A DNA stretch of 64,000 nucleotides from an uncultured Clostridia bacterium (GTDB taxonomy: Bacteria; Bacillota; Clostridia; TANB77; CAG-508): positions 16,483 to 80,482 of the forward strand of contig CANQTN010000001.1 of the NCBI GenBank assembly GCA_947626815.1, read 5' to 3'. This document shows positions 42,713 through 45,385 of the stretch, in pieces; the stretch's first letter is position 1; each line of letters starts with the position of its first letter. The notes beneath the pieces are model-generated. The model did not search any database and had not been told where the DNA came from. It saw only the letters and a list, made by a program, of their open reading frames with translations. The position numbers were made by a program, and so were the translations under genes.

Positions 42713-43777
42713 TTATAAAATATATTGTTTTTGTCTTGAACAACCATAGCTATAAATTAGCTTACCTATTTCATTCCATGTTTCTATTAAATAATCATCT
42801 ACATTGTTCTTAAAAAAATCTTCTTTATACATTTCTTCCTCAAAAAAGTTATTTATTTTTCTTAATAAATTTGTTCCAAAACCGTTGATAATATATATTT
42901 TTTCATCATATTTATATTTTATTTCTTCCATATTTTTCTTCCAGTATTCTCTATAAGCTTCATCTCTTTCCCATTTTGTTATTTCTATGCCATTTTTCAT
43001 ATCAAAATAAGCTAATGGTGATTCTTTAAACGATGTTGGTCTAAGCAATTTTAAAAAATTAATAACTTCTTGCCTACTTTCTTCATCTTTTGAGTTATTA
43101 TAATAATTTTGAATCATTTTTATTGGAATTAAATTTTCTACTTCGTGAGCATATAATGTATATATCTCCACTACTTGACTTATTTCTTCTTTTAGTAATT
43201 TTTTTAATGTATTGCCTTTTGGTGAATTAGCATATTTTTGATCTGAATCAATTATTAATAATGATATTTCTTGTAAATTATTTTTCTCTTTGTATACATC
43301 TACTATAGTAGATCCTCCACCATTATTTTTTTGCATATTTATATCAATACCAGTTATTGAATTTTTAATTTTATATAATTTACCAATATTATAGAAGAAT
43401 TTACAATCTGACAAGTTTTCACATATTAAATTTATTTTATTTTCAAATAAATTAATATCTATAGCAATATCTATTGGGATTAATAATTCATCTTTATTTT
43501 TTCTAATTGATTCATTGTTGTTTGGTATTATAATAATTTTTCTATTTACACTCTTTTTTACAGACAAGCCTTCTGAAGATTTATCAAAGATATTTTTATA
43601 AATTTTTCTTGCATGATTATCAATATTTTTGCTATTATAAAGTATGTCTAAAGTCTTTTTTGGCAAGAATATATAGTTTTTTCCATTATTAATATCATAC
43701 GCTAATTTATTAAAAAACGTTATATATTTACTGTCATTTAATAATTCAATACATTTTTCATCTATTTCTATAAACAT
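42713..43777 (-). CDS. TOPRIM/DUF4435-like putative nuclease partner (AriB/AbiLii-like)
   Basis: 354 aa; GGGSTI ... LLIIDSDQKY (DxD) ... AHEVENL; 24 bp downstream of ABC ATPase gene. Confidence 0.4.
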   Translation of the reverse strand: MFIEIDEKCIELLNDSKYITFFNKLAYDINNGKNYIFLPKKTLDILYNSKNIDNHARKIYKNIFDKSSEGLSVKKSVNRKIIIIPNNNESIRKNKDELLIPIDIAIDINLFENKINLICENLSDCKFFYNIGKLYKIKNSITGIDINMQKNNGGGSTIVDVYKEKNNLQEISLLIIDSDQKYANSPKGNTLKKLLKEEISQVVEIYTLYAHEVENLIPIKMIQNYYNNSKDEESRQEVINFLKLLRPTSFKESPLAYFDMKNGIEITKWERDEAYREYWKKNMEEIKYKYDEKIYIINGFGTNLLRKINNFFEEEMYKEDFFKNNVDDYLIETWNEIGKLIYSYGCSRQKQYIL

Positions 43778-43801
43778 TTTTATATCTCACTTTTCCATTT
43801 A

Positions 43802-45385
43802 TTATTCTATATCATCTACTGAAAAGAAACCTATTGGCCAATTTTCTAAATATCCTTCTTTATTGAACTTACTAATTTTTACTTGTGTATTATAATCATC
43901 TTTTTCTTTTTCAAACATAATTATATTTACATCATCTTCAGCTATTTTATTTTTATATATTAAATTTCCTAATCTATTAATCATAATTTCTGAATGTGTT
44001 TCTAAAATAAATTGAATTTTATTTTTTTTATTTTTAGCAATTTGGGATATGATATCTATTAATTTTGCTTGTAATTGTGGATGTAAATGTAATTCTGGTT
44101 GTTCTATTGCAAATACAACAGGAGCCTCTTTTACAAAATCTATTTGCATATTTAAAATTACCCATAATTGAGTTATTATTGGTAATAATTGACTATATCC
44201 ATAGCCAGTATCTGATAAATTTACTTTTTTATCATTCTTTTCTATGTTTATTGATACATGTCCATCTGTCTGCACTGGAATAACTTTAAAGTCAAAATAT
44301 TTATATATCCATTTATTATATTCTATTAATTTATCTTCACCTAAACTATTTATAAATATTGGTAGGTTTCTACCATCTGAATCAATTTGGTCTACTGATA
44401 AATTTCTTAATCTATAATATCTCTCTGCATGTGCTCTAACAGGTTTTATATAATTTACATTCATAAAATATGCTTGCATATAATCAATACAGAATTTTCC
44501 TACTTCACTAATATATAATACTTTTAAATTTCTAATTATTTCTTCATTATTTAATATATTTGTATTAATATTCAATATATCATCTAAATTCTTTGTTCCT
44601 AATCTATTTTTACGATTTAAATCTTTTTTAAATTTTTCGAGAAATTCTTTTATTTCTATATTGTTATTAATAAACATTTCTATTATTAGTCTATCTAAAA
44701 ATTCTTGCTTATAAAATCTTAAATAGTCATTAATTGTATCATTTTTACCAAAAATATCTGTTAAAATTTTATTATAAATTTCTCTGTTATTAAATAGTTC
44801 ATACATTGCATTAAAAAATGAATTTTGTTGACTATATCTACCATAATTTTCTCTATATTTTTTACTCAAATTATTTACTTTTACATCTTTTTTGTTTAAA
44901 TATAATACGTCTTTTTCTTTGTCTATATATAGTTCTTCATTATCACATGTAATTTTTATTTTAGATATTATATCTGCATCATTTTTATTACTAATTTCAA
45001 TAGTTAATTTTGCTTCTTTATTTATATTATATTTTTCATTAGAATTACTTATTGAAAATGGTCCTTCTAATTGTCTTTTTATATTTTTTATTTCATATGG
45101 TATTGCAAATTCTAAACCTATACAATTGTTTTTTGCATTTTTATTTATAGTTTCTTTATATGATCCAAAATCCACATAATCTTCATCATCTCCAGCCCAT
45201 AAAATTGGTCCATTAATTCTTCTAAAAAATGATTGTTTTAATAATGGAAATACTCTTAAAAAAGTACTTTTTCCAGAACTGTTACTTCCAACTAACATAT
45301 TTATAGTTTTTAGATCAATATTTCCTGTATCAACTAATGACCTCATATTTGTTATTCTTATACTATTCATATTTTCTCCTTTCAT
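43802..45385 (-). CDS. OLD-family-like ABC ATPase (AAA_15/21; AriA/AbiLi-like)
   Basis: 527 aa; Walker A GSNSSGKST; LSDTGYGYSQLLPI; FAIEQPELHLHP; ETHSE H-loop. Confidence 0.55.
   Translation of the reverse strand: MKGENMNSIRITNMRSLVDTGNIDLKTINMLVGSNSSGKSTFLRVFPLLKQSFFRRINGPILWAGDDEDYVDFGSYKETINKNAKNNCIGLEFAIPYEIKNIKRQLEGPFSISNSNEKYNINKEAKLTIEISNKNDADIISKIKITCDNEELYIDKEKDVLYLNKKDVKVNNLSKKYRENYGRYSQQNSFFNAMYELFNNREIYNKILTDIFGKNDTINDYLRFYKQEFLDRLIIEMFINNNIEIKEFLEKFKKDLNRKNRLGTKNLDDILNINTNILNNEEIIRNLKVLYISEVGKFCIDYMQAYFMNVNYIKPVRAHAERYYRLRNLSVDQIDSDGRNLPIFINSLGEDKLIEYNKWIYKYFDFKVIPVQTDGHVSINIEKNDKKVNLSDTGYGYSQLLPIITQLWVILNMQIDFVKEAPVVFAIEQPELHLHPQLQAKLIDIISQIAKNKKNKIQFILETHSEIMINRLGNLIYKNKIAEDDVNIIMFEKEKDDYNTQVKISKFNKEGYLENWPIGFFSVDDIE

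Follow-up and report, generated by a model that had tools for sequence, protein, structure and literature searches.

Toprim nucleases that are gated by ABC ATPases, such as Old, Gabija, and PARIS, are among the commonest immune modules of bacteria, and recent work has shown that two of them are tRNases. Here we consider a pair of genes that encode an ABC ATPase and a partner protein of 354 amino acids in the genome of an uncultured Clostridia bacterium (assembly GCA_947626815.1, contig CANQTN010000001.1, positions 16,483 to 80,482). This whole stretch of 64,000 nucleotides is the window of our analysis, and all coordinates are positions within it. We will argue that the pair is probably a self-contained conflict module, directed against phages or mobile elements, that is the cargo of an integrated mobile element.

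Several described systems resemble the pair. After it hydrolyzes ATP, the P2 Old nuclease cleaves tRNA-Thr in the anticodon stem (PMC12445682). PARIS, which is a class 4 OLD-like system, consists of the ABC ATPase AriA and the DUF4435 Toprim tRNase AriB: a hexamer of AriA sequesters AriB until the ATP-dependent detection of a foreign protein frees AriB, which dimerizes (PMC11464382) and cuts tRNA-Lys (PMC12409363). Menshen has three components: the DUF262 sensor NsnA, the ATPase NsnB, and the effector NsnC, whose N-terminus is an inactive PIN domain. In a predicted complex, an NsnB tetramer grips the N-terminal domain of the effector between its paired DUF3696 tails, and the motifs reported as derived in NsnB are EN in place of DE, R in place of Q, and GxG in place of SGG (PMC12065111). 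HEC-03 combines an ABC ATPase with a PIN partner; it protects E. coli, and both genes are required (bioRxiv 10.1101/2024.01.29.577857). In AbiL, the ATPase AbiLi is accompanied by AbiLii, a Toprim protein of the RloB type. Finally, PDC-M55 is one of 145 "phage defence candidates" that were identified by guilt-by-embedding in BREX, DISARM, or restriction-modification (RM) loci (Payne et al., bioRxiv 10.1101/2024.01.29.577857). A literature search on the name "PDC-M55" gave no match.

A Strict Two-Gene Unit

The two genes lie on the minus strand and are co-directional, with a stop codon and a 24-bp spacer between them. A preliminary description of the locus, which was made from the sequence alone, had given them as open reading frames (ORFs) of 527 and 354 amino acids with a gap of 24 bp, and this is what we find. 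For the ATPase, the second ATG (45370) is the more likely start, because there is a GGAG 8 nucleotides upstream (the ATG is preceded by AAAGGAGAA) and because the gene call on identical public contigs also gives a product of 522 amino acids. We use this numbering below. Metagenome assemblies in ENA and Logan contain both proteins in identical form, with gyrA after them. The ORFs are not due to chance, as they are long for DNA of 21% GC and have hundreds to thousands of homologs.

The pair is a strict and widespread unit without a conserved third gene. We surveyed relatives at 30 loci (29 genomic loci and one that was reached through the ATPase), and at all 30, the ATPase is directly upstream of the partner and on the same strand, with gaps or overlaps of a few bases to about 100 bases. 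These loci come from Bacillota, Bacteroidota, Cyanobacteria, Chloroflexota, and Pseudomonadota, and the hosts include Clostridia, Lachnospiraceae, Streptococcus, Bacteroidales, Anaerolineae, cyanobacteria, Pseudomonas, Pseudoalteromonas, and Thiomargarita. The best genomic relative is in a metagenome-assembled genome of an uncultured Clostridia bacterium (49% identity). An ATPase of 40% identity also has a partner from the same family. Around the 30 loci we considered the two nearest proteins on each side, or 98 neighbors in total. No third gene recurs: none of the 25 Pfam families that we listed is found in more than 4 of the 98. The commonest families are resolvases or recombinases, helix-turn-helix proteins, integrases, Eco57I and N6 methylases, NACHT, and UvrD. 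The PADLOC models identify type II and type IIG RM, DRT, GajB-like, and MADS components among these neighbors (loci L004-L036), at a few of the loci.

As a side observation on these neighbors, the GajB-like UvrD helicases, the DRT reverse-transcriptase-helicase, the type II or IIG RM proteins, and the MADS components each account for about 2 of the 98.

The pair is also carried by mobile DNA. In the window, a VirB4/TraG-like ATPase and a ParA-like gene belong to the same low-GC block, and the pair comes last in its cargo. The filamentous (Tubulavirales) Pseudomonas phage 62-2 (OR621022.1, 12.6 kb) has the pair at 2303-4939 (locus L037), in the accessory end of its genome, where the pair adjoins the phage's repressor and excisionase and is annotated as "rad50 ATPase" and "putative OLD family nuclease." The pair is also on the 552-kb Bacillus thuringiensis plasmid pH3-552 (3406-6197; locus L038), next to a DUF4297 gene.

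The ATPase Resembles NsnB of Menshen

The ATPase matches the Pfam families AAA_15 (E = 7.6e-25) and AAA_21 (E = 6.5e-21). Among the PADLOC models, all of which were scored as single profiles, the best match is to NsnB of Menshen (9.5e-45), followed by PDC-M55A (1.7e-37), HEC-03B (2.8e-33), and AriA (2.5e-25, with another AriA match at 2.1e-21). The AriA matches do not discriminate, because their coordinates and scores mirror those of the generic AAA_15 and AAA_21 matches. Judging from these profiles, the ATPase is in the NsnB/PDC-M55A/HEC-03-like clade of AAA_15/AAA_21 "OLD-ABC" ATPases and is not specifically AriA-like. This is a large family: of the 8,000 candidates that were scored, more than 3,171 matched.

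The preliminary description had pointed to three motifs as hallmarks of the ATPase, and in an alignment of 146 homologs, all three (GSNSSGKST, FAIEQPELHLHP, and ETHSE) are invariant or nearly so. In the Walker A motif, G28, N30, G33, K34, and S35 are invariant, and the P-loop of the family can be written as GxNSSGKS[TS]. In the Walker B motif, E423, Q424, E426, H428, L429, H430, and P431 are found in all 146 proteins and L427 in 145. The consensus is hhhE-Q-P-E-L-H-L-H-P, which means that an invariant E-Q, followed by an equally invariant P-E, stands where a D-E dyad would be usual. Also, the glutamine of the Q-loop region is replaced by arginine (R317, in 145 of the 146 homologs), and the signature is of the GxG type, being conserved as S-D-T-G-F/Y-G-Y-S-Q. 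The E-Q Walker B, the R-for-Q change, and the GxG signature match the derived features that were described for NsnB (PMC12065111). The last 40 residues of the ATPase match DUF3696 right at the threshold (22.2 bits, with a cut-off of 22). By analogy with Menshen, we predict that this helical tail is the docking site for the partner.

Separately, we note that E-Q-P-E at residues 423-426 (window 44093-44104), where D-E-P-E would be usual, makes the protein resemble a naturally "E-to-Q trapped" ABC ATPase.

The Partner Is a Candidate Toprim Nuclease

The partner is not matched by any model in Pfam or NCBIfam, and a search of PDB sequences with either the single protein or a profile of 79 family members gave no specific match. 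A word-indexed search found just 14 close homologs. In a profile search of 1.84 billion representatives, there were 1,728 clusters (counted at 50% identity) with E <=1e-3, and 1,235 of these had E <=1e-10. The 150 best matches are 262-454 amino acids long, and nearly all of them are full-length proteins of about 350-400 amino acids; none of the 150 is fused to an ATPase.

A structural model of the partner from AlphaFold2, which was built from 13 sequences, has high confidence scores (pLDDT of 91.7, pTM of 0.90). Comparison of this model to PDB structures with Foldseek gave marginal matches, and the weak ones include retron Eco2 and GajA. The model supports a fold that agrees with the Toprim regions of OLD-family proteins and with AriB. 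In its core, there are four strands (as assigned by DSSP), with a GGG at residues 153-155 after the second strand, and the conserved residues are at the strand ends that are typical of Toprim domains. In particular, the core has the OLD-type pattern of a glutamate after the first strand, DxD after the third, and further acidic residues. Among 79 relatives (21-64% identity), E120, G155, D177, D179, E214, and K261 are invariant, and conservation reaches 90% or more at D124, G153, G154, E212, N215, and P218. The partner motifs that had been singled out in the preliminary description, LLIIDSDQKY and AHEVENL, are present and are conserved across these 79 sequences, and the Toprim glutamate that it mentioned can be placed at E120, within LICENLSDC. 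Based on the model and on conservation, we take the partner to be a putative OLD/AriB-like Toprim nuclease of the two-metal type, with an active site that looks intact (E120, D124, D177xD179, and E212/E214).

The Toprim core is flanked by two other regions. Residues 1-112 form an alpha/beta domain that varies greatly across the family, and by analogy to Menshen this could be an adaptor that binds the ATPase. The C-terminal helical region probably has the role of the helical domain of OLD nucleases, which is to complete the active site or to bind the substrate.

The partner family is nearly invisible to existing models of Toprim proteins. The partner itself does not match PADLOC's AriB or DUF4435, RloB, DUF4276, or TOPRIM-Old, and it does not match AbiLii. 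None of the 79 family members matches Pfam's DUF4435, TOPRIM-Old, RloB, or DUF4276. Just one of the 79 matches AriB. A relative matches the AriB model over the Toprim core (E = 1.3e-5), and another matches the Toprim region of GajA. The only meaningful match of the partner to a defense model is to PDC-M55B (E = 2e-9, 35.7 bits, model positions 136-294 of 315), and 53 of the 79 family members match this model weakly.

Table 1. Features of the gene pair and of the DNA upstream of it
Feature	Position	Strand	Remarks
ABC ATPase gene	43802..45370	minus	522 aa; 527 aa (43802..45385) with the alternative start, the upstream ATG at 45385
Walker A / P-loop, GSNSSGKST	45263..45289	minus	residues 28-36 of the 522-aa ATPase
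Walker B / D-loop, FAIEQPELHLHP	44078..44113	minus	residues 420-431 of the ATPase
H-loop (switch), ETHSE	43988..44002	minus	residues 457-461; E, T, and H invariant in 146 homologs
DUF3696-like helical tail	43823..43945	minus	C-terminus of the ATPase; Pfam DUF3696, E = 1.7e-4
Partner gene	42713..43777	minus	354 aa; N-terminal alpha/beta domain, putative Toprim nuclease core, and C-terminal helical region
N-terminal domain of partner	43442..43777	minus	residues 1-112; Rossmann-like alpha/beta; poorly conserved; no conserved acidic site
Toprim core of partner (predicted)	43088..43441	minus	residues ~113-230
E120, candidate catalytic	43418-43420	minus	after beta1 (DSSP), then N121 and D124
D177-S-D179, candidate catalytic	43241-43249	minus	after beta3 (DSSP)
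H211-E212-V-E214-N215, candidate catalytic	43133-43147	minus	after beta4 (DSSP)
C-terminal helical region of partner	42716..43087	minus	invariant K261 (FDMKNG); W279, W334, and C346 conserved
Long imperfect inverted repeat	45496..45706		398-bp spacer upstream of the ATPase; 54-nt arms and an inner 36-nt pair

Relationship to Known Systems

The preliminary description had recognized a split architecture, with an ABC ATPase and a separate Toprim-type nuclease that lacks an HNH motif, and our analysis supports this. The pair differs from the OLD nucleases of class 1 (P2 Old and TsOLD), class 2 (GajA and BpOLD), and class 3 (the retron-associated ones) in that the ATPase and the Toprim domain are on separate polypeptides. 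Also, neither of the genes that go with some OLD nucleases, for the GajB helicase or a reverse transcriptase, is conserved alongside the pair at the 30 loci. For Gabija (GajA/GajB) in particular, there is no helicase adjoining the pair in the window, and the GajB models are matched by only 2 of the 98 neighbors of its relatives.

The closest catalogued entry is PDC-M55. It shares the two-gene layout of ATPase and partner, and the ATPase matches PDC-M55A across model positions 180-402 of 421. However, the match of the partner to PDC-M55B covers only about half of that model, from the Toprim to the helical part, and the ATPase scores higher with NsnB. Across the family, the PDC-M55B scores are just 15-40 bits, and we therefore consider the pair to be a sister of the family that was modeled rather than a member of it.

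HEC-03 is similar in having a related ATPase and a two-gene layout with a nuclease partner, but the effector here is of the Toprim type instead of an active PIN domain, and the partners show no profile match. As for AbiL, the AbiLi model gives only a weak match (9e-12), to the ATPase of a relative.

Two other systems were considered and rejected. The pair does not belong to MADS (MAD3/MAD4), as the match to the NCBIfam model antiphage_MADS3 has 49 bits when the cut-off is 420, and the partner does not match DUF4276. It is not Septu because there is no HNH partner.

The preliminary description had labeled the pair as PARIS/AbiL-like, and as a statement of membership, this does not hold: the partner has no match to AriB, DUF4435, or RloB, and the ATPase scores best with NsnB. 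It had also proposed a search of profile models as a check, and the results were divided, with matches of the ATPase to AAA_15 and to PADLOC's ATPase models but no match of the partner to DUF4435 or AriB and only the weak match to PDC-M55B. On the other hand, its suggestion that the pair could be a divergent or new variant fits well with a family that varies the theme of ABC ATPase plus Toprim and has only weak PDC-M55B matches. As far as the sequences can tell, the family is unnamed and is neither PARIS nor AbiL itself.

What Is the Role of the Pair?

The best explanation for the pair is that it is a conflict module of two genes that needs no other component. We consider this likely because the two genes are strictly paired, because they are carried by mobile elements, because the partner has the residues of a Toprim nuclease, and because related systems of ATPase and nuclease have been tested. 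By analogy with those systems, it probably defends against phages or plasmids. Four observations weigh against this explanation. First, the nearest catalogued entry, PDC-M55, is itself just a candidate, and the match of the family to PDC-M55B is weak and partial. Second, the active site of the Toprim domain was placed by the positions of the strands and by conservation, rather than by the clustering of acidic residues in space. Third, the association of the relatives with defense islands is partial, and many of their neighbors are housekeeping genes. Fourth, the E-Q Walker B could mean that the ATPase does not hydrolyze ATP and that the regulatory logic is different.

A second possibility is that the pair serves the mobile element that carries it, either as an addiction or stabilization module in which the nuclease is the toxin and the ATPase is its keeper, or in exclusion or DNA processing. 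This would fit with where the pair lies, which is the edge of an island that has VirB4/TraG-like and ParA-like genes, and with its presence on a filamentous phage and on a megaplasmid. In addition, the annotation of AAA_21 names it a putative AbiEii toxin family, from type IV toxin-antitoxin systems. A service to the element seems unlikely because many relatives are in chromosomal settings without conjugation genes and because the related pairs of ATPase and nuclease that have been tested (PARIS and HEC-03) act in phage defense. Also, a benefit to the element and the defense of its host are not mutually exclusive.

Third, the pair could be a divergent but genuine PARIS system, in which Ocr or other anti-restriction proteins would be sensed by the ATPase, freeing the nuclease to cleave tRNA-Lys. 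The two-gene layout is the same, and the proteins are of similar sizes (about 55 and 35-40 kDa). We consider this very unlikely. Although the ATPase does match AAA_15, AAA_21, and PADLOC's AriA models, the AriA models behave as generic AAA_15/AAA_21 models, and NsnB, PDC-M55A, and HEC-03 score far higher. Furthermore, the ATPase has an E-Q Walker B and a DUF3696 tail that is not mentioned in the PARIS papers that we cite, and the partner has an extra N-terminal domain of 112 residues. One relative does match the AriB model, but the partner in the window matches neither AriB nor DUF4435, and among the 79 family members, one matches AriB and none matches Pfam's DUF4435. Nothing in our analysis speaks for Ocr as a trigger, which the preliminary description had raised.

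Another explanation of about the same improbability is that the pair is Menshen without its sensor, that is, NsnB and NsnC without NsnA, as either a decaying remnant or a minimal form of the system. The ATPases are of a common type (AAA_15 with DUF3696, a Walker B of E-[N/Q], R for Q, and GxG), and NsnB is the top match in PADLOC. The partner also has a layout like that of NsnC, with a variable N-terminal alpha/beta domain and a C-terminal nuclease, and some NsnC effectors have a Toprim fold. However, those were reported to be of the DUF4276/RloB type, whereas the partner here has a Toprim domain of the OLD/AriB type, and its N-terminal domain is only putatively PIN-like. There is no DUF262/ParB gene in the window (the 239-amino-acid ORF upstream of the ATPase, at 45784-46503, has no Pfam match), and the 25 Pfam families that were listed for the 98 neighbors do not include DUF262. 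Given that all 30 loci have just the two genes, and that the family includes about 1,700 clusters, this is a stable architecture and not the result of decay.

Finally, a housekeeping role in DNA repair, of the Rad50/SbcCD or RecF/RecR type, is hardly credible: the homolog on phage 62-2 does carry the GenBank label "DNA double-strand break repair rad50 ATPase," and RecF/RecR also combine an ABC ATPase with a Toprim domain, but the ATPase lacks a coiled-coil insertion (the Pfam match to SMC_N has E = 0.19), the distribution of the pair is patchy and mobile, in low-GC islands, with no conserved neighborhood of repair genes, and the genome has its own recF just 9 kb away.

A Proposed Mechanism

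If the pair is a conflict module, as we favor, then we can propose how it might work, by analogy to PARIS, Septu, Gabija, and the predicted NsnB-NsnC complex. The ATPase would form oligomers and would keep the nuclease inactive, by means of its C-terminal tails and the variable N-terminal domain of the partner. It would sense a cue from a phage or a plasmid, and it would then free or activate the Toprim nuclease. Because glutamine is invariant where the catalytic glutamate is expected, we suggest that the signal involves the binding of ATP, or its very slow hydrolysis, with sensing tied more to the binding step than to any fast hydrolysis. The nuclease would cut nucleic acid and halt growth, which would abort the infection. 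By the precedents of AriB and P2 Old, the target would most likely be tRNA or another RNA; DNA, the target of GajA, would be less likely.

A broader proposal, to which we would give about an even chance, is that these pairs are a distinct, widespread, and unnamed class of split "OLD-like" immunity. In this class, a Menshen-type ATPase without a sensor would itself detect invaders and would gate a Toprim nuclease that has no Pfam family via a hypervariable adaptor, and the NsnB-type ATPase would be a modular "effector holder" that operates with or without a ParB-DUF262 sensor. If this is true, then Menshen, HEC-03, PDC-M55, and PARIS-like systems would join into one mechanistic family.

The Surrounding Island

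The pair was originally described as lying in an AT-rich island near the replication origin, and the details bear this out. The GC content of the island is 0.21, as compared to about 0.30 for the flanking gyrA and gyrB. The order of the genes on the minus strand is dnaA, dnaN, recF, gyrB, about 8 kb of low-GC DNA, and gyrA, and the GC skew turns at about 57 kb.

The preliminary description had also noted that the pair is bounded upstream by a large inverted repeat. This repeat is real: its arms (45496-45549 and 45653-45706) are 54 nucleotides long and 93% complementary, and a stretch of 231 nucleotides has a predicted folding energy of -89.8 kcal/mol (z = -16.4). However, it is not a conserved part of the system. 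It is a single copy in the window and has no match in Rfam, and in the closest genomic relative (L008), the ATPase begins 38 bp after the upstream gene and the repeat is absent. We therefore rejected the repeat as a component of the system and view it as a local feature of the island.

A second hairpin-like repeat, at 50836-51061, comes directly after the stop codon of gyrB. It has arms of 45 nucleotides that are 91% complementary and 136 nucleotides apart, and it encloses a pair of 77 nucleotides (71% complementary). The two hairpins (45496-45706 and 50836-51061) bracket the segment with conjugation genes; by eye, they are dissimilar. Next to the second hairpin, a region of about 600 bp (50242-50835) has no ORF of at least 50 amino acids and no match in Rfam, and it could be a non-coding RNA, the end of an element, or an attachment region. 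The GC skew at 50001-51000 is +0.24, which is opposite to the surrounding genes on the minus strand.

Low-GC DNA (13-23%) from mobile elements is present on both sides of gyrA (40120-42588), at 30900-40100 and at 42700-50900. The block at 42700-50900, which includes the pair, is on the minus strand. The block at 30900-40100 is on the plus strand and encodes an S24 repressor, a tyrosine integrase, a TrwB/TraG-like coupling protein, and DnaB_2 and DnaC-like replication proteins. The functions for conjugation appear to be divided by gyrA, which is essential; there could have been two insertions, or this could be a rearranged integrative and conjugative element (ICE). In the same block, at 39042-40068, two overlapping ORFs of 198 and 165 amino acids look like a DnaC/IstB-like helicase-loader gene that was split by a frameshift: there is a match to IstB_IS21/Bac_DnaA in the second, and at the end of the first is GNTGL, which is a truncated P-loop. 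In the other block, the ParA/MinD-like gene (46527-47789, 420 amino acids) has a GC content of 13-15%, which is far below the average of the island, and its product is very rich in K, N, and I.

Implications

The pair extends the known theme of defense by an ABC ATPase together with a Toprim nuclease and is not a new principle, but it represents a family that is large, poorly annotated, and mechanistically tractable. Current annotation of defense genes probably misses this family, because the nuclease is invisible to Pfam and NCBIfam and is only faintly matched by one candidate model in PADLOC. The combination of a Menshen-type ATPase and an OLD/AriB-type nuclease without the Menshen sensor is a clean case of a system with two components, and it bears on how NsnB-type ATPases sense infection and on what an invariant E-Q Walker B means for signaling. 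Finally, its carriage by ICEs, plasmids, and a 12.6-kb filamentous phage makes the family relevant to the conflicts between mobile elements.

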